Source of the DNA: Candidatus Korarchaeum sp.
Lineage (GTDB): Archaea; Korarchaeota; Korarchaeia; Korarchaeales; Korarchaeaceae
DNA length: 64,000 nucleotides
Direction of reading: 5' to 3'
Assembly (NCBI GenBank): GCA_020833055.1
Contig: JAJHQZ010000001.1
Location: 301,141-365,140, forward strand
The notes under the pieces are model-generated. The model did no database searches. It worked only from the letters and a program-made list of their open reading frames with translations, and was not told the DNA's origin. The translations under genes and the position numbers were made by a program. This document shows, piece after piece, positions 7,534-37,447 of the stretch; the first letter of the stretch is position 1, and the number at the start of each line of letters is the position of its first letter.

Positions 7534-8169
7534 ATGTCCCTCGAAAGTGATGAGAGGGGGGATTCTTCTGAGATAGTCTCAGAGGAGGAGAGGATCCAGA
7601 GGATCCTGAAGAATATTAGGGAACCTGAGATCGCTATACAGAACGTAGTATCTTCTGCTGATATAAGGCAGAGGCTGGACCTTCATGAGATATCCAGGAG
7701 GATCAAGAAATCTAGATATGATCCAGAAAAGTTCCCTGGGCTTGTTTTAAAGATAGATGAACCAAAAGCAGCTTTATTGCTTTTCAGTAGCGGTAAGTTC
7801 GTTTGTACTGGGACGAAATCTGTCGAAGAGTCGGCTAAAGCTATAAACGCAGCTATAGAAGTGCTTCAGAAGCATGGTATAGAGGTGAAAGGGAGACCTT
7901 TGATAAAAGCGGAGAACATAGTTGCCTCAGCTAAGCTTCATGTCAAAGTGGATATAGAGAGACTCGCTCTCGAGCTCGAAAATACCCTCTATGAACCTGA
8001 GCAGTTCCCCGGTCTCATTTTCAGGATGAGAGATCCCGATGTAGTATTCCTCATATTCGCCTCAGGGAGTCTCGTTTGCACAGGGGCTAAGAAGGAATCC
8101 GATGTGAGGAGAGCTGTATATAAACTCAGGGATATCTTAGCTAGGAAGGGATATCTAGTATTCGAGTGA
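7534..8169 (+). CDS. tbp: TATA-box binding protein
   Basis: Two repeats: IQNVVSS...YDPEKFPGLV...LLFSSGKFVCTGTK and ENIVAS...YEPEQFPGLI...LIFASGSLVCTGAK. Confidence 0.97.
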   Translation: MSLESDERGDSSEIVSEEERIQRILKNIREPEIAIQNVVSSADIRQRLDLHEISRRIKKSRYDPEKFPGLVLKIDEPKAALLLFSSGKFVCTGTKSVEESAKAINAAIEVLQKHGIEVKGRPLIKAENIVASAKLHVKVDIERLALELENTLYEPEQFPGLIFRMRDPDVVFLIFASGSLVCTGAKKESDVRRAVYKLRDILARKGYLVFE

Positions 8170-8215
8170 TACCTCACATTTTTTATTTTTATAGTAGTGA
8201 GTGGGTGGGGATATC

Positions 8216-9313
8216 ATGGTTAGAACGACAGTCTCCGTTATAAAAGCGGATATCGGGAGTCTCGCGGGCCATCATATTGTCCATCCAAAGCTCAAGGAGA
8301 TAGCTGCGAGTGAATTAGCTGAAGCAAAATCCTCTAGAATTATAGAGGATTTCTATGTCACATCCGTTGGGGACGATCTACAGCTAATAATGACGCATAG
8401 GAAGGGAACGGACAGTTCAGAAGTGCATGGACTGGCGTGGAATATATTCAGGAAGTGCGCTGATATAGCTAAGGAGTTAGGTCTCTATGGGGCGGGTCAA
8501 GATCTACTCAAGGAAGCCTTCTCCGGGAACCTCAGAGGGATGGGGCCTGGAGTAGCTGAGATGGAATTCGAGGAAAGGCCCTCTGATCCAATAGTAGTCT
8601 TTATGGCTGATAAAACTGAACCAGGTGCTTTCAATTTGCCGATATTCAGGATATTCGCGGATCCCTTCAATACAGCTGGACTCGTCATAGATCCTAAGCT
8701 TCACTCAGGCTTTATATTCGAGATAATGGACTTGATCGAGAGCAAGGTAGTGGAACTAGCTTCCCCTGAGGATATGTACGATATATTATCGCTAATAGGG
8801 ACTCCCTCGAGGTATGTGATAAGGAGGGTCTTCAGGAAGGTCGATAGAGAAATAGCCGCTTCTATCAGCACGACGAGACTCAGCTTGATAGCTGGGAAGT
8901 ACGTTGGTAAGGATGATCCTGTCGCGATAGTAAGAGCTCAAGCAGGATTCCCGGCATTGGGTGAGATACTCGAGCCTTTCTCCTTCCCCTTCTTAGTGGC
9001 TGGATGGATGAGGGGTTCTCATGCAGGTCCTCTGATGCCAGTGAGTGAGAGGGACGCGAGGCCGACTAGGTTCGATGGTCCTCCTAGGATAGTGGCCTTG
9101 GGATTCCAAGTGAAGGACTCGAAGCTCATAGGACCGAGCGACCTATTCTCAGATGTAGCTTTCGATGAGACTAGGAGGATGGCTAACTTCATAGCTGATT
9201 ACATGAGGAGGCACGGCCCCTTCATGCCTCACAGATTGGGCCCAGAGGAGATGGAGTATACCACGCTCCCAGAGGTCCTGAAGAAATTGGAGGGGAAGTT
9301 CAGGCACGAGTGA
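8216..9313 (+). CDS. fbp: Bifunctional fructose-1,6-bisphosphate aldolase/phosphatase (FBPase class V)
   Basis: SVIKADIGSLAGH, GDD, GAGQDLL, GNLRGMGPG, DKTEPGAFN, YVGKDDP and GWMRGSH. ATG 8216 is preferred over GTG 8201. Confidence 0.97.
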   Translation: MVRTTVSVIKADIGSLAGHHIVHPKLKEIAASELAEAKSSRIIEDFYVTSVGDDLQLIMTHRKGTDSSEVHGLAWNIFRKCADIAKELGLYGAGQDLLKEAFSGNLRGMGPGVAEMEFEERPSDPIVVFMADKTEPGAFNLPIFRIFADPFNTAGLVIDPKLHSGFIFEIMDLIESKVVELASPEDMYDILSLIGTPSRYVIRRVFRKVDREIAASISTTRLSLIAGKYVGKDDPVAIVRAQAGFPALGEILEPFSFPFLVAGWMRGSHAGPLMPVSERDARPTRFDGPPRIVALGFQVKDSKLIGPSDLFSDVAFDETRRMANFIADYMRRHGPFMPHRLGPEEMEYTTLPEVLKKLEGKFRHE

Positions 9314-9986
9314 ATGATGCTATTGGTTCAGCCAGCTCCCTTATTTTTCTTTGAGGGTCCGGACTCTTCGTTACTGCTGAGGCCACGAGGACCCCGTAGC
9401 TCCCTAGCTCTAGGGCCGCTCTGACATCATCACCACTCGATATACCAGCGCCGCAGAGGAGGGGTATCGCTGAATTCACTACTCTAACGGACCTCAGGGA
9501 GCTCAATATCACCTCTGGCTTCGCTTTAGATACGGGAATTCCGCTACCTATGAGTTCAGGCGGCTCCACAGCTATAGCATCTGGCGATAAAGCAGCGACA
9601 GCAGCGGATTCAGACGGGGTCGGTGAGCAGACTATGGAGATGAGCTTCAAATCCCTCATTATACTTATAGATTCGGCTATATGCCTTAAGGGGATCTGCC
9701 TCTCTGAGTGATTCAAGAGGGAGCCTCTCGCACCAGCTTCCTTCACTAAGCTAGGTGGTACATGCCCTGTGTAAGCACCAGCTGGTATAGGGTCCACATG
9801 CTGTGCGAATACTGGTATCTCGACAGATGAGGAGACTTGCCTGAGATCTATTATGTTCGGGGATACCCCTATCAGAACGCCTGTCTCCTTCCAGACCCTC
9901 TCAGCTGACTTAGATATCTCAACTGCTCTATCACCTGATGACTCTACGTAAGCCTTGAAGTTTATCAACAGTCTGGGTATATGCAT
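9300..9986 (-). CDS. tpiA: Triosephosphate isomerase, archaeal type
   Basis: INFKAY, AQHVD, NHSE, VEPPELIGSG, CGAGI and GVLVAS. Likely start is ATG 9986. Confidence 0.96.
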   Translation of the reverse strand: MHIPRLLINFKAYVESSGDRAVEISKSAERVWKETGVLIGVSPNIIDLRQVSSSVEIPVFAQHVDPIPAGAYTGHVPPSLVKEAGARGSLLNHSERQIPLRHIAESISIMRDLKLISIVCSPTPSESAAVAALSPDAIAVEPPELIGSGIPVSKAKPEVILSSLRSVRVVNSAIPLLCGAGISSGDDVRAALELGSYGVLVASAVTKSPDPQRKIRELAEPIASFTRA

Positions 9987-10028
9987 AAGTCGGAGGAGAA
10001 AAGCTAATTTATTAGTGTATCTTATCGT

Positions 10029-10643
10029 ATGATGCACCTCGAGTTAGATGAGGGGTCATTCTTAGTCAGGCTCGCGAGGACTGCTATAGTCTCGTTCTTC
10101 GCTAATAGGGAAGTTCTAGAGATAAAGCCACCTTATCCGAAGCTTGAGGAGAAATCTGGTGCATTCGTAACTCTAAATACGTATCCCGAGGGTGAGCTCA
10201 GGGGATGTATAGGGTTCCCAGAGCCTATATACCCGCTATATAAGGCAGTAGTGAGAGCTGCACTAGCAGCGGCTTTCGAAGACCCGAGGTTCCCTCCCTT
10301 ATCCGAGGATGAGATCGATAAAGTCACCGTCGAGGTCTCAGTTTTGACACCTCCGGAGAGGATAGACACGATGGTGAGCAAGAGGGAGGAGCTTCCAGAG
10401 CTCGTAATCGTGGGGAAACATGGGTTGATAGTCAGGAGAGGCCGCCTCTCTGGGCTCCTCCTCCCTCAAGTGGCCGTTGAGTATTCCTGGAGCCCTGAGG
10501 AGTTCTTAGATCAGACATGCATTAAGGCTTGGATGCGTCCGGGTTGCTGGCTCTCAGAGGGCACTGAGGTCTACAGGTTCTCAGCATTGGTTTTCGCTGA
10601 GGAGAGTCCCAATGGAAAGGTAGTGATCAGGGAATTAGGGTAA
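10029..10643 (+). CDS. AMMECR1-domain protein (TIGR00296 type)
   Basis: GAFVTL, LRGCIG, AAFEDPRFPP, EVSVLTPP, GLLLPQV and C.KA. Confidence 0.92.
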   Translation: MMHLELDEGSFLVRLARTAIVSFFANREVLEIKPPYPKLEEKSGAFVTLNTYPEGELRGCIGFPEPIYPLYKAVVRAALAAAFEDPRFPPLSEDEIDKVTVEVSVLTPPERIDTMVSKREELPELVIVGKHGLIVRRGRLSGLLLPQVAVEYSWSPEEFLDQTCIKAWMRPGCWLSEGTEVYRFSALVFAEESPNGKVVIRELG

Positions 10644-32071: not shown

Positions 32072-33412
32072 TTAGGATAAAGCGTTTATTATCTCATTCA
32101 ATAACTTCCTCGCTTCCTCCTCATCCCTCCCCTCAACTAGGACCCTTATCTTATGCTCCGTTTTAGAGAGCCTAACTAAAGCCCATAGATCATCGGAAAT
32201 CAACCCGATACCATCGAGGAAATCTAAATTCATTCCTCTCTCTTCCCCAATTTTGATTAAAATCCTTTCCACTTCTTTCCATTCCTTCTCCAATGGGAGA
32301 TTCCTCCTCATCGTATGGTACTTGGGGAAATCTCCGATAATATCGCTCAAACTCCTCCCTCTAGTAGCCATTAGTTCCAATATGAGGGCCGCTGCTAAAG
32401 GACCATCTCTACCTAGGTGGAAATCGGGGAGTATCACGCCCCCGCAGCTCCCCTCACCACCGACAGTAGCCCCTACCTCCTTCATCTTATGCGTCACATA
32501 AGCCTCTCCGACGGGGGTTCTGTAGATCTCAGCACCCCTCCTCATCGCTATATGATCGAAGATCCTGGATGATGCCGCGTTCACGACCAGTTTCCCACCG
32601 CCCTTCCTCTCGAGTATATAATCGACGACGAGCGCTAGCGTAACATCTTCAGGCATGACCTCCCCTCTCTCCGTTACTATAGTTAGTCTGTCAGCATCCG
32701 TATCATGAGCGAAGCCCAGATCCGATCCAGTGGCTACTACGATCTTAGAGAGGTCCTCTAGGGTATCTGGTCTCGGCTCCAATTCCCTCACGAATATCCC
32801 AGGGGCTGAGTTTATAGTTAACGTCTTGACACCCAGTTCGTTGAGGAGATAGGGGGTTACATAAGCCCCAGCTCCACCGTTAACATCTAAGCAGACCTTC
32901 AACTTATACCCTCTGACTCTCTCAATATTCACGAACTTGAGGAGGTCCTCCAAGTAGTCCTCTGTAGCGTCATATTGCTCCTCCTTTCCCATCTCGTTCC
33001 AGGGCACTGATTCAAATCTTCCCTTCTCGAACTCAGATCTGAGGAGCTCCATCTCATCAGGGTGGAGGAGGATACCTTCTCTCCCTAATAACTTCAATGC
33101 GTTCCACTCAGGCGGATTGTGGCTCCCAGATATCACTATGCCTCCATCCGCATTGTACTTAGCTGTGGCCCATTCTATCGTAGGTGTTGGAGCTACCCCT
33201 ATGTTGAGCACGTTCACACCAGCTGAGAGGAGCCCTGAGATAACTGCTCTCTCAATAGCTTCTCCACTTGGTCTCGTATCCCTTCCGACGACTACTAGAG
33301 ATCCCTTCCCCAATCTCCTCCCGAAGATATTGGCTATCAACATGGAAGTGTGAGCATCGAAGCCCCTGCCCACGATACCCCTTATCCCTAAGGGAGTGAA
33401 GATGAGGCTCAT
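32072..33412 (-). CDS. glmM: Phosphoglucosamine mutase / phosphomannomutase (alpha-D-phosphohexomutase)
   Basis: GIRG, GRDTR, ISGSHNP (phosphoserine loop), DTDADR (metal loop), GGEGS.G and R.S.TE..IRV.VE. Confidence 0.9.
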   Translation of the reverse strand: MSLIFTPLGIRGIVGRGFDAHTSMLIANIFGRRLGKGSLVVVGRDTRPSGEAIERAVISGLLSAGVNVLNIGVAPTPTIEWATAKYNADGGIVISGSHNPPEWNALKLLGREGILLHPDEMELLRSEFEKGRFESVPWNEMGKEEQYDATEDYLEDLLKFVNIERVRGYKLKVCLDVNGGAGAYVTPYLLNELGVKTLTINSAPGIFVRELEPRPDTLEDLSKIVVATGSDLGFAHDTDADRLTIVTERGEVMPEDVTLALVVDYILERKGGGKLVVNAASSRIFDHIAMRRGAEIYRTPVGEAYVTHKMKEVGATVGGEGSCGGVILPDFHLGRDGPLAAALILELMATRGRSLSDIIGDFPKYHTMRRNLPLEKEWKEVERILIKIGEERGMNLDFLDGIGLISDDLWALVRLSKTEHKIRVLVEGRDEEEARKLLNEIINALS

Positions 33413-35391
33413 ACCCCATCCCCCGAATCCTCGGGAAGTTGAGTGACCCTCTCAAAATCCCCCGATCTCAGGTAAGATCTCATAACCGGGAGTATCACAG
33501 CTAGTATTATCAGAACGCCTAGTGGTCCTGAGATAGGGGAGAGGGGGCTGGATCTCACGATCAAAACTACGCTAGTACCTATCGCATTCAGGACACCGCC
33601 TATCGCGAAACCTGCGAAGAAGGGAACTGCTCTATCTTGGAGGAATTTTTCACCCCCATATCTCTCAGCTAAGAACCTCAATAGACTAGTTAGCATGTAT
33701 AGAGCAGCGTATCCCGGGAGTAAGAGCCCAAGAAGAATACCTATGGCACCTATGCCAAATATAGGGAAGATTCCCTTCACTATGAATGGGATCGCACCTA
33801 TTAGAAATCCCTCGATGAAGTAAATCGGATCCCACCCTTCTAGCTGGTTCATCACAGTGAGGAGTCCCTCCTCTGGATAAGTCGTTACTGCCATCTCCAG
33901 GGGCTTCTTAGCGGCTCCCCATATGTGAAATGAGAGGAGAAGGAGTAAGGAACCTGCTAAAGCTCCGAAGACTATCCCGAAGACTTGAGCCCTGAAAATA
34001 GTCTTAGCCTTTATATTGAGCTCTGATGAGAGCTTGAACCCCTCAGCTGAAGCTGTAGGTTGAGCCGATATGGAGTCAGTCACCATAGCATTAGCGGCTC
34101 CTGAGAAGAAGGTATCTGAAGATGCTCTACTGAAGAAGCCGGAGGAGAAGAATATCTGATCCAAGATACCCCTTATCCCTAGATTGATCGGTACTATCCA
34201 GTTGCTCATCCCGAGGGTCCATATGTAGCCCTGCCAGTAAATTGATTGAAGTATCAGGATAGCTAAAGCTATCGCGGGACTCATCCCCAGGATCGATAGG
34301 AGAAATATGCTAAAGATGAAGGTAAGGGCCCATCCTACGAGGAGCCACTTCCTCGAGAGGGGCTCATCGTCCCACCCCCTGAAGTTCCTCGCTATATACT
34401 TAGCTCCTACGAGGATGGGGATTAGACCTACGGCGACGTAGACCCCTGTGCTGAGATGGTACCATGGCAAAGGGCCATTGAAAGCGGCATTTGATGAATA
34501 GAATGAGAAATCGTGACCGCTCTCATAGGGAAGGAGTCCCATCCTCACTAAGATCGGGGGTATGAGTAAGTATGCGACTATAGCAGTAATCCATATCGAT
34601 ACCTGTATCCCCAATGGTATCAGGAAGGACCACGCAATTAGATCCGGTGTTATCTGAGTCCCCTGGTCCATACCGAAGGCCCCTCCAGGGAAGGAGCTCT
34701 GGAGGTAGGGAGTGAGATCGAACCTCAGGTCCGCTGTTGGGAACTCCTCCCATATAGCTTCCAAGAGATGCCCTCTCTGGAAGAGACTAATTATGAAACC
34801 TGATAATATTCCAATGTATAGTATTTTTAGTTTAATTCCTCTTTCTTTCAATATTTTTGAAAATTTTGCGGCGACAGTAGCGACGGGGAAGACTAACTTC
34901 TCCCTCTCTATGTAGAATCTCCTCAACGGTATCACGTTGAAGTAAGAGAAGAGAGTCAGGATAATCGCGAAGAGGACTACATAAGTTAGTGGAAGGATCC
35001 AGGCTCCCCAGTTTATACTGCCGCCCAGGAGGAGGCTCCTCATAGCGTCCTCATCCCTCGGCACTAGAAAGCTGGGGAGGATCTGCCTCAGTGGGAAGTC
35101 CTTGGAGAGGCCTGCGATAGCCCAGGATGGGAGTATGTACTGCCAACCTATGAAGAGGACTGTCATCACCTCAACAGAACCGAATATGACTCCCATCTCC
35201 CCGAAGGACAGGGGCTTCTTGCTCATACTTGAAAGGGCATATGAGATAGCTAATATGACGAGAGCAGCTTCCCCAGTCCAGCTGTAGCCACCGGCCCCCC
35301 TTATCACAGTCTGACCGAAGAGTATGAGGAGACCGAACGCTATAGAGAGGAGCAGAGCCCTTGGAGTGAATGCCCTCTCATCCTGTTCCAA
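33409..35391 (-). CDS. Polytopic membrane protein, OPT-superfamily / DUF6785-like transporter
   Basis: About 16 hydrophobic segments. RAFTPRALLL.. at the start, and W.AW..PL...R....E.EKL.FP resembles DUF6785/OPT-related proteins (recalled). Confidence 0.55.
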   Translation of the reverse strand: MEQDERAFTPRALLLSIAFGLLILFGQTVIRGAGGYSWTGEAALVILAISYALSSMSKKPLSFGEMGVIFGSVEVMTVLFIGWQYILPSWAIAGLSKDFPLRQILPSFLVPRDEDAMRSLLLGGSINWGAWILPLTYVVLFAIILTLFSYFNVIPLRRFYIEREKLVFPVATVAAKFSKILKERGIKLKILYIGILSGFIISLFQRGHLLEAIWEEFPTADLRFDLTPYLQSSFPGGAFGMDQGTQITPDLIAWSFLIPLGIQVSIWITAIVAYLLIPPILVRMGLLPYESGHDFSFYSSNAAFNGPLPWYHLSTGVYVAVGLIPILVGAKYIARNFRGWDDEPLSRKWLLVGWALTFIFSIFLLSILGMSPAIALAILILQSIYWQGYIWTLGMSNWIVPINLGIRGILDQIFFSSGFFSRASSDTFFSGAANAMVTDSISAQPTASAEGFKLSSELNIKAKTIFRAQVFGIVFGALAGSLLLLLSFHIWGAAKKPLEMAVTTYPEEGLLTVMNQLEGWDPIYFIEGFLIGAIPFIVKGIFPIFGIGAIGILLGLLLPGYAALYMLTSLLRFLAERYGGEKFLQDRAVPFFAGFAIGGVLNAIGTSVVLIVRSSPLSPISGPLGVLIILAVILPVMRSYLRSGDFERVTQLPEDSGDGV

Positions 35392-35399
35392 GGGATCAC

Positions 35400-36152
35400 C
35401 TAAGCGAGGAGGCCGCTCTTCATATTTAAATGGTGATCAGTTATAGATGAGGATACCACCTTATCTATCCCTCTCATCTCTCTAATCGTATCTATAGCTT
35501 CAGGGACCGCTGAGAGGATCCCGTATAGGGAGAAGATATTGATAGAGCTCCCGTCCCTCGATGGCTCGATGGATCTCAGGAATAGGATGATAGAGAATAT
35601 AGTGTATCTCCTGAAGAACGGATAGTAGATGCATATCTCATTCAGATCTACCTCGCGATTTATTGAACTCACCCTTCTAGCGGATATTAAATAGTCTCTC
35701 AGGGTCTCTAAATTGAGCCTCTCCGATAACTCTAGCTCGAGCATAGCTGGTCTGAAGAACGGGCAGCAGTATATATCGGAGACCCATCTGATCCTCAATT
35801 TACTCACGGGAATGTCAGATAACCTTGAAAGGATGATATCTCTCGGATTGAGTTGAATACCAGTGCCCTCGAATGTCAACTTAATGCTCAACTCATTCGG
35901 ATCATACTCGATCAGAAAATCGATGTTCTCGAGGAAATCCTCCAGGAATCCCTGTACCTTAATCCCCCTCTCCTTGAAATATTCAAGGCTCGATTCACTG
36001 CAGAATAAATCAGCCATCTCAGATAGATCCTTGGAAAATGGAGTGGGCTTATGGGAGTAGAGACCTATCACATCTATATCGGGTTGGCTCCTCAGCGCAT
36101 CCATTAAGTGAGCTGCATAAGGGTCCTGACCTATGATCCCTATCCTTATCAT
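35400..36152 (-). CDS. Degenerate archaeal (type II) GAPDH-like protein lacking catalytic and NAD-binding motifs
   Basis: N-terminus IRIGIIG...DAL.SQPDIDVIG...E.F.ERGI.V.G.LED.LE.ID and C-terminus VPEAIDTIR.M...S...TD..L match GAPDH-II. GxGxxG and SCNT are absent. The start overlaps the pgk stop. Confidence 0.7.
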   Translation of the reverse strand: MIRIGIIGQDPYAAHLMDALRSQPDIDVIGLYSHKPTPFSKDLSEMADLFCSESSLEYFKERGIKVQGFLEDFLENIDFLIEYDPNELSIKLTFEGTGIQLNPRDIILSRLSDIPVSKLRIRWVSDIYCCPFFRPAMLELELSERLNLETLRDYLISARRVSSINREVDLNEICIYYPFFRRYTIFSIILFLRSIEPSRDGSSINIFSLYGILSAVPEAIDTIREMRGIDKVVSSSITDHHLNMKSGLLA

Positions 36153-37357
36153 CTAGATGAGCTCTCCCTCAGGGCATCGACAGCGGGCAAGGGGAGGCCA
36201 GCGAGACCGTACATAACAGCGCCTCCAGCTGTGTAAACTTTGCTCCCTTTGACCCCTACCATATCGGCTGCTGCGCTGAGATGTCCCCCGCAGAGGACTG
36301 ATTCTTTAGCATATTTCTCCATCGCACTCACTATCTCGAGAGTCCCTCTCCTAGATTCCGGCTTCTCAAATATCCCCATCGGTCCGTTAGCTATAGCTAT
36401 ATCGGCGCCCTTCAACTTCTCCTTGTATAACTCTATCGTACCGACGCCTATATCTATTATCTCGGAATTCTCAGGTATTGCGTAGACTGGGAAGTTCTCG
36501 ATCCTACCATCCTCTAGCTTCACTAGGAAATCGACTGGATAGAGGATCCTACCGGGCGCTTCATTCAAGATCTCCCTGGCTGCTGGGAGTAAGAGGTCCA
36601 GATCCTTCATCTTCTTCATCTTCCCGTTAAGTCTATGACCAGCTGCTAGGGCTAGGAGCATGCCGACAAGCCCCCCTGTCAGGACCTCCGCTGCTTTATT
36701 GTTCCTGATAGCGTGAACCATTACTTTCAGCTTATCGGGGACCTTAGCCCCTCCTAATATGAGTATCCTCCTTCCCTTTATCGAATCTAATTCCATCATC
36801 TCACTTAGCATTTTCTGCATGTTCCTCCCGGCCGCAGAGGGCAGGAGATATGGGAAAGCTACTAAAGAAGGTTGGCTCCTATGAGCAGCTTGAAAAGCAT
36901 CATTAACATAAGCATCGAATAGAGGAGCTAGCTTCTGAACTAAATGTGTCTTTATTAAATCCTTTGGATCTCCTTCTATGTTTTCTTCAGCCATAAATCT
37001 CAAATTCTCGAGCATTATGACTTCTCCCTTCTTCATCTTCTTTATCTTCTCCCTGACTTCGCTGGAGAAGACTCCATCCACGTATTCCACATCTATGCCG
37101 AGCTCCTTAGAGAGCTCTCTCGCATGAGGTTCCGTAGTTATGAAATCGCTGCTTCCAGGTCTTCCCTGATGTGTCCCAACGACTACAGAAGCTCCCCTCT
37201 CAATCAACTCCTTTAGAGTCTTAGCAGCTTGCTTTATCTTCTCAATTTCCATTATTTCACCGTTCTCTCCTATTGGAACGTTCATATCAGCTCTTAAAAA
37301 GACCCTCTTGTTCTCGACATAGAGATCATCGAGAGTAGGTACCCTTCTCGCCTTCAT
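36149..37357 (-). CDS. pgk: Phosphoglycerate kinase
   Basis: RADMNVP, THQGRPG, LENLRF, NDAF.AAHRSQPS, LGGAK..DK, NGPMG.FE and GGHL. ATG 37357. Confidence 0.95.
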   Translation of the reverse strand: MKARRVPTLDDLYVENKRVFLRADMNVPIGENGEIMEIEKIKQAAKTLKELIERGASVVVGTHQGRPGSSDFITTEPHARELSKELGIDVEYVDGVFSSEVREKIKKMKKGEVIMLENLRFMAEENIEGDPKDLIKTHLVQKLAPLFDAYVNDAFQAAHRSQPSLVAFPYLLPSAAGRNMQKMLSEMMELDSIKGRRILILGGAKVPDKLKVMVHAIRNNKAAEVLTGGLVGMLLALAAGHRLNGKMKKMKDLDLLLPAAREILNEAPGRILYPVDFLVKLEDGRIENFPVYAIPENSEIIDIGVGTIELYKEKLKGADIAIANGPMGIFEKPESRRGTLEIVSAMEKYAKESVLCGGHLSAAADMVGVKGSKVYTAGGAVMYGLAGLPLPAVDALRESSSR

Positions 37358-37447
37358 AGAGCACCCCCCGCTCATGCCCTCTGAAAAATTAAATTTTTAT
37401 CTCTTCAACGGAGTGGGCTCGCTAAATAATGGAAAAATTTTTGATAA

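Follow-up and report, generated by a model that had tools for sequence, protein, structure and literature searches.

Pseudoenzymes, the homologues of enzymes whose activity is dead, are retained for regulatory or scaffolding roles according to the references cited in PMC7729029. Most of those described are paralogues that sit beside an active copy. The protein reported here, for which we use the working name gapX, is like them in its homology to an enzyme, the absence of catalytic residues, purifying selection and a stable (predicted) fold. It differs in being the original orthologue, displaced by a xenologue of another GAPDH class, and unlike pseudoenzymes that are merely mutated, it has lost parts of its structure as well. 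A second related case is found in the haloarchaea, into which a bacterial type I GAPDH was transferred (stated in a passage of PMC12525153 that cites Tastensen and Schonheit 2018). Korarchaeum, an archaeon of hot springs, likewise carries a bacterial-type gene. In haloarchaea, however, a functional type II GAPDH was presumably retained alongside type I, whereas in Korarchaeum the type II gene has turned into a non-catalytic relic, and in a more distant group of the same class (g7) it has been lost outright. As far as we can tell, the conversion of a displaced archaeal GAPDH into a conserved, down-sized pseudoenzyme is new. Full-text literature searches brought up no account of a catalytically dead GAPDH from Korarchaeia or from any other archaeon, and the gapX proteins, annotated in public records as "hypothetical protein", are an undescribed pseudoenzyme family.

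The window analysed is a stretch of 64,000 nucleotides from Candidatus Korarchaeum sp. (assembly GCA_020833055.1, contig JAJHQZ010000001.1, positions 301,141 to 365,140). In it, gapX occupies 35400..36152 on the minus strand, and translation gives an uninterrupted ORF of 250 codons with zero internal stops. Its start codon overlaps the stop codon of pgk in the tetranucleotide ATGA (36149..36152, minus strand), read directly from the sequence; the open frame and the overlap are thus as the sequence-only reading of this DNA had described them. Orthologous loci likewise overlap or abut pgk. Judging from this arrangement, pgk and gapX are likely to be co-transcribed, with translational coupling of the two.

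The phosphoglycerate kinase gene pgk itself (36149..37375, minus strand; Pfam PGK, 327 bits) may be slightly shorter than its ORF. The frame opening at 37375 begins MSGGCSMKARR..., and orthologues align only from residues 4–7 on. A TATA-like A/T-rich box is visible at 37389-37400, about 20–25 nt upstream of the pgk ATG. Because this box lies too close to the ATG at 37375, and because of the orthologue alignment, the second ATG at 37357 (MKARR) is probably the true start, and a leaderless or very short-leader mRNA would then be the likelier product. Given the box, the transcription unit probably starts at pgk. All TATA-like boxes mentioned here were read by eye, a bacterial promoter and terminator scan being unsuited to archaea.

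Only 8 nt separate the gapX stop from the gene for an OPT/DUF6785-type membrane protein of 660 aa (33409..35391, minus strand; Pfam DUF6785 82 bits, OPT 27 bits), subsequently referred to as OPT. Its stop is overlapped by 4 nt by a phosphoglucomutase/phosphomannomutase gene (32072..33412, minus strand; Pfam PGM_PMM domains I–IV), the last gene of the same-strand cluster. The window also holds fbp, encoding the class V FBP aldolase/phosphatase (8201-9313, plus strand), and tpiA (9300-10037, minus strand), which together with pgk had been listed in the first reading. The genes tpiA and fbp are convergent and overlap by 14 nt at their 3' ends; a TBP gene with two TBP repeats (7534-8169, plus strand) lies directly 5' of fbp.

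That both ends of gapX are recognisably type II GAPDH had been claimed from the letters alone. Profile and structure searches bear this out. The NCBIfam type II GAPDH models NF003251 (E=1.2e-11, 44.2 bits, cut-off 185) and TIGR01546 (E=2.8e-9, 36.6 bits, cut-off 232.9) both match, and in the genome search the gapX proteins of all genus members scored 24–39 bits with the type II GAPDH HMM. These scores are 4–6 times under the family cut-offs, so gapX is not a type II GAPDH by the curated whole-protein HMM standard; no Pfam family matched it. In a phmmer search of the PDB, residues 1–89 align to residues 1–90 of the S. solfataricus GAPDH (1b7g), and residues 183–248 align weakly to 273–338. An AF2 model built from 27 orthologues reached a pLDDT of 93.2 and a pTM of 0.90. 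The comparison with GAPDH-II by Foldseek, proposed earlier as a check, placed type II GAPDH structures in all six top positions among PDB entries (1b7g, 2czc, 1cf2, 2yyy; E 1e-14 to 2e-12, TMq 0.71–0.78), with ArgC and the type I GAPDHs far below. We reject the idea that gapX belongs to a different Rossmann family and uses catalytic residues of its own, since there was no Pfam match, NCBIfam and PDB give GAPDH-II only, and ArgC ranked far lower. gapX is therefore confirmed as a real homologue of type II GAPDH, though far under the family thresholds. A tree built from the columns that gapX and GAPDH-II share joins it to the korarchaeal GAPDH-II sequences through a stem of 1.9 substitutions per site; support for the precise node is weak.

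With the type II enzymes of known structure (1b7g, 2czc, 1cf2, 2yyy), gapX thus has in common its ancestry, the slot downstream of pgk and the overall fold, comprising the N-terminal beta1-alphaA-beta2...beta4 half-Rossmann, the catalytic-domain beta-sheet and the C-terminal PE-x-ID-x-IR helix. Unlike them, it is about 90 residues shorter and lacks the GxGxxG loop, the Cys/His pair, the phosphate sites and the Asn of PEN. An alignment of the family with ten full-length type II GAPDHs showed each of these losses. The dinucleotide loop GYGTIG, which had been noted to read GQDPYA in the window, is G(Q/H)(D/N/G)P(Y/H)(A/T) across gapX, and in a 209-aa form described below it contains no glycine at all. 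The segment VVSCNTTG is replaced by LTFEGTG or SYGSSG (SCNTTG becoming FEGTG, YGSSG or FGSAG), so the catalytic Cys is gone, and the catalytic-His strand TTHxH reads (Y/C)CP(F/Y)F. VRRAADP and SHH, which we take to be the phosphate-binding segments (in 1b7g and 1cf2), fall into gaps or are replaced. PEN, reported as PEA in the window, varies as PE(A/T/V). The loss of about 90 residues from the middle, also stated in the first reading along with that of the VVSCNTT segment, resolves into four main gaps of 45, 23, about 11 and 5 residues. The largest removes the stretch from beta4 to the catalytic-Cys strand and leaves the Rossmann domain incomplete; the 23-residue gap deletes the helix after the Cys along with VRRAADP. 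The losses described in the first reading are thus all borne out. By the GxGxxG loop with a complete Rossmann domain, by the Cys/His pair and by the phosphate segments, gapX is in each case outside type II GAPDH.

The sequence-only reading had held that the 1,3-BPG/GAP step must be served by another gene, and had suggested searching the genome for a canonical gap and for GAPN or GAPOR. We searched the whole assembly (1.39 Mb, 99.5% complete). A profile search detected no full type II GAPDH in it, but another gene for the step was found: contig C24 encodes a type I GAPDH (66580-67548; TIGR01534, 410 bits, cut-off 367) with intact INGFGRIGR, SNSSCTTN and TIHAYT motifs. Its closest relatives outside Korarchaeia are bacterial, at 61–68% identity (WOR-3, Dadabacteria and Thermodesulfobacteriota). 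The same genome contains several AFOR-family genes as GAPOR candidates and one aldehyde dehydrogenase as a GAPN candidate. One AFOR-family gene on C24 (11559-12742, plus strand; L009 and L011 in G000) appears as two adjacent ORFs of 346 and 262 aa that cover AFOR_C positions 2–161 and 156–385; a frameshift, a split gene or a sequencing error could account for this.

A survey of 41 genomes revealed that the two GAPDH types are distributed in a complementary manner. Full type II GAPDH is absent from all 21 Korarchaeum genomes, while type I scores above the cut-off in 19 of them, the two without it being only 63% and 70% complete, so that a type I enzyme is available throughout the genus. A recognisable gapX of 250–254 aa is present in 20 of the 21, and the remaining genome (G003) has a 209-aa ORF in the same slot. 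The sister genera g2–g6, of the same family and order, encode a normal 340-aa type II GAPDH and neither type I nor gapX; in four of them the 340-aa gene lies directly 3' of pgk. Since these relatives have type II gap in the pgk slot and no type I, gapX is the positional orthologue of the displaced enzyme. In g7 (G027/G028; L032/L033, L051/L052) type I is present and both type II and gapX are missing, which illustrates complete loss as the other outcome of the same displacement. The g7 pgk shares only 31% identity with that of the window.

The order pgk-gapX-OPT was found in 20 of 20 genus genomes with a recognisable gapX and at three further loci (L050, L053 and L065). When the 209-aa ORF of G003 is counted, a relic between pgk and OPT/DUF6785 is present in all 21 Korarchaeum genomes. 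This ORF is related to the gapX family by hhalign (E 1.3e-4), and two other assemblies encode homologues of the same length, 209 aa, that are 74% and 65% identical to it. Its predicted model has a pLDDT of 89.8, and Foldseek again ranks type II GAPDH highest. When 1.84 billion representative proteins were searched with a profile, only three clusters of about 250 aa came back, all other matches being full-length GAPDH-II hit through the N-terminus. One of the three includes a protein of 249 aa (P0012), which comes from a hydrothermal-vent metagenome and has pgk-X-OPT synteny. The three gapX subfamilies (the main clade, the vent form and the 209-aa form) share only about 20% identity.

Whether gapX is decaying or selected can be judged from its substitution pattern, and dN/dS across orthologues had been named as a decisive comparison. 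The ML omega (IQ-TREE, GY+F3X4) was 0.106 for gapX, on a tree length of roughly 20 substitutions per codon site, as against 0.023 for pgk and 0.060 for OPT. For all pairs with unsaturated dS, NG86 values were 0.05–0.17, 0.01–0.09 and 0.02–0.10, respectively, and the 209-aa subfamily gave 0.12–0.17; between gapX clades dS is saturated. All 20 recognisable genus copies are intact at 40–91% identity, and no internal stop was found among the 20 genus, three 209-aa and one hydrothermal-vent sequences. The frame is thus undisrupted and omega is far from 1, which sets gapX apart from a pseudogene; descent from an enzyme, loss of the catalytic apparatus and purifying selection together make it a pseudoenzyme. 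Its non-synonymous rate is 2–5 times that of pgk.

In the main clade 41 columns are invariant. Conservation is strongest in the N-terminal half-Rossmann (beta1, QPD and FK-x-RG-I-K-V-x-G-F-L) and in the C-terminal L-PE-x-ID-T-x-RE-S-x-G helix, which is expected to pack on it. Across the three subfamilies M1, P24, G63, G68, R110, R160, E218, D221, E225 and G247 are invariant, K60 and S52 nearly so. Of these, E218, D221 and R160 are conserved in true GAPDH-II too, and several of the invariants are therefore probably structural. Taken together, the low omega, the intact copies, the pLDDT of 93 and the loss of motifs support the earlier proposal of a selected non-enzymatic role rather than decay, and we regard it as very probable that gapX is both non-catalytic and selected.

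The simplest history we can suggest from the sequences is that the redundant pgk-linked type II gene was remodelled, not lost, after type I was acquired. The ancestral pgk-gap operon contained a GAPDH gene of type II, the archaeal and anabolic class, from which gapX descends vertically and in place. On the Korarchaeum stem, a bacterial-type type I GAPDH was acquired and became responsible for the 1,3-BPG/GAP step. The type II gene already there then lost its dinucleotide loop, the second Rossmann half, the Cys/His pair and both phosphate sites, and shrank to about 250 aa, in one deep branch to 209 aa, without disappearing. Since then purifying selection has acted on it as a protein with a compact fold of two lobes.

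gapX offers a clean natural case of the fate of a core metabolic gene after xenologous displacement, in which the displaced gap gene was neither lost nor duplicated; instead its fold was trimmed and selected for a new non-catalytic job. The size classes of 340, 250/249 and 209 aa, with their shared synteny, form a stepwise series for studying the minimisation of an oxidoreductase fold. Metabolic reconstructions of Korarchaeia should leave gapX out of their GAPDH count; the real enzyme is encoded by the type I gene, at another place in the genome.

What gapX does is a matter of more graded confidence. No NAD(P)- or triose-phosphate-binding residue is conserved across the three subfamilies. The family is acidic (pI 4.8–6.0 in all members), and with a GRAVY of +0.04 against -0.10 for the parent it is more hydrophobic and aromatic, chiefly beside the deleted elements. 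gapX could thus work by protein-protein contact, a proposition to which we give about an even chance. The best overall explanation, in which we place roughly as much belief as doubt, is a pseudoenzyme that serves the PGK/GAPDH step of gluconeogenesis as a partner, structural or regulatory but not catalytic, possibly by retaining the old contact of GAPDH-II with PGK. We rank this step first because gapX would be co-translated with PGK and because the parent enzyme shared a labile intermediate with PGK. 1,3-Bisphosphoglycerate is extremely heat-labile, and a partner of PGK and/or GAPDH would bear on how it is handled in hyperthermophile gluconeogenesis.

The specific naming of PGK and/or type I GAPDH as the partner is tentative. 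Adjacency to pgk was inherited from the ancestral pgk-gap operon and therefore provides no independent evidence for a PGK-related role. The elevated rate relative to pgk and the low identity between subfamilies are not what one would expect of a protein bound tightly to so conserved an enzyme, and the strict adjacency to OPT offers an alternative partner. A further point against this explanation is that the polar residues R110, R160, E218, D221 and E225 are invariant (K60 and S52 nearly so) and could form a small-ligand site. A bolder version, in which gapX is an obligatory adaptor tethering archaeal PGK to the acquired type I GAPDH, appears improbable to us. Were it true, the heat-labile 1,3-bisphosphoglycerate would pass between the two enzymes at about 85 °C without being set free, and the displaced enzyme would have been recycled as the glue that makes its own replacement workable.

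Apart from a partner in the PGK/GAPDH step, gapX might be a ligand or redox sensor, or newly catalytic, its remodelled active-site cleft binding a metabolite or metal and regulating gluconeogenesis. The residues lining such a site in the main clade would be C51, C129/C130 and C174, with E82/Y83. Three of these Cys (C51, C130 and C174) are invariant and the fourth nearly so in 27 main-clade sequences, while the parent enzymes have none there, and the polar residues listed above are invariant in all subfamilies. Yet the Cys are absent from both the 249-aa vent member and the 209-aa subfamily, which have the same synteny, and the 209-aa form is itself under purifying selection. E218, D221 and R160 are probably structural, being shared with GAPDH-II, and no other enzyme family was matched by HMM or fold. 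We consider a sensor or new enzyme unlikely. The same distribution of Cys weakens the metal role once suggested for the YCCP motif, and we reject a metal or FeS site as a function of the whole family. RNA or other nucleic-acid binding, also raised in the sequence-only reading, is disfavoured by the acidic pI of all members.

The main alternative partner would be OPT. Some transporters have Rossmann-type gating subunits, and gapX may have become a similar cytoplasmic accessory to the membrane protein encoded downstream. The two genes are adjacent (from 8 nt apart to overlapping) in every gapX genome, including those of the vent and 209-aa forms. The sister genera g2–g5, which keep the true type II enzyme, are without OPT, and the gain in hydrophobic and aromatic residues over the parent would suit an interaction of this kind. 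On the other hand, the OPT homologues of g6, g7 and g8 have no gapX relative alongside. Upstream of the g6 copy no such relative was detected, the 212-aa ORF there being unrelated (hhalign probability 0.2%), and on this ground we reject the idea that OPT homologues of other lineages are preceded by a conserved small partner. In one g7 genome (G027) the OPT homologue lies 7 kb from the type I gap and carries four in-frame stops.

A further point against an accessory role is that OPT may be transcribed separately, as suggested by a TATA-box-like element within the 3' end of gapX, TTTAAATA (35423..35430, minus strand), where the gapX codons specify H-L-N-M. An A/T-rich box (TTTAAATA, TAAATATAAA or TAAGTATTAAA) occurs at the matching place in 20 of 20 orthologues (the window and L012-L031), in the codons for L-(N/S)-I-(K/R) and about 30–55 nt ahead of the OPT start. 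In these 20 orthologues the third positions of the box codons are always A or T: Asn is always AAT, Ser always AGT, and Ile never ATC. Between the box and the OPT start there is a conserved SD-like GGTGATCC or GAGGTGG. The box may be an internal OPT promoter embedded in coding sequence. On balance, we judge a dedicated OPT accessory to be distinctly unlikely.

The same elements allow a reading in which the gapX protein is idle and its ORF is kept open for ribosome run-through from pgk (through coupling or polarity) and for the OPT promoter and SD, the constraint on the protein, which is translated of necessity, being against misfolding only. Besides the ATGA overlap, the conserved SD-like GGTGATCC and the embedded box, the high rate relative to the neighbours and the progressive shrinkage from 250 to 209 aa would fit. 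We think this very improbable, as an omega of about 0.11 is as low as that of many working proteins and near that of OPT, 41 columns are invariant, and the displaced gene can simply be deleted, as g7 shows. Finally, a young decaying pseudogene, although it would fit the loss of all catalytic motifs, is refuted by dN/dS and by intact frames at this divergence with saturated dS, and a still-working GAPDH with unusual residues, for which only the weak HMM similarity to GAPDH-II speaks, is hardly credible either with Cys, His, GxGxxG and both phosphate sites missing and a canonical type I enzyme present.

Two further entries from the representative library deserve mention. P0025 (228 aa), an unrelated GAPDH-II and likewise short, has retained GYGTIG and PEN, but some 100 residues are missing from its centre, the Cys among them. 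Independent shrinkage, a pseudogene or an assembly artefact could each explain it. P0029 (608 aa) is a full-length type II GAPDH with an N-terminal extension of about 270 residues, and its C-terminal part is matched by the gapX profile.
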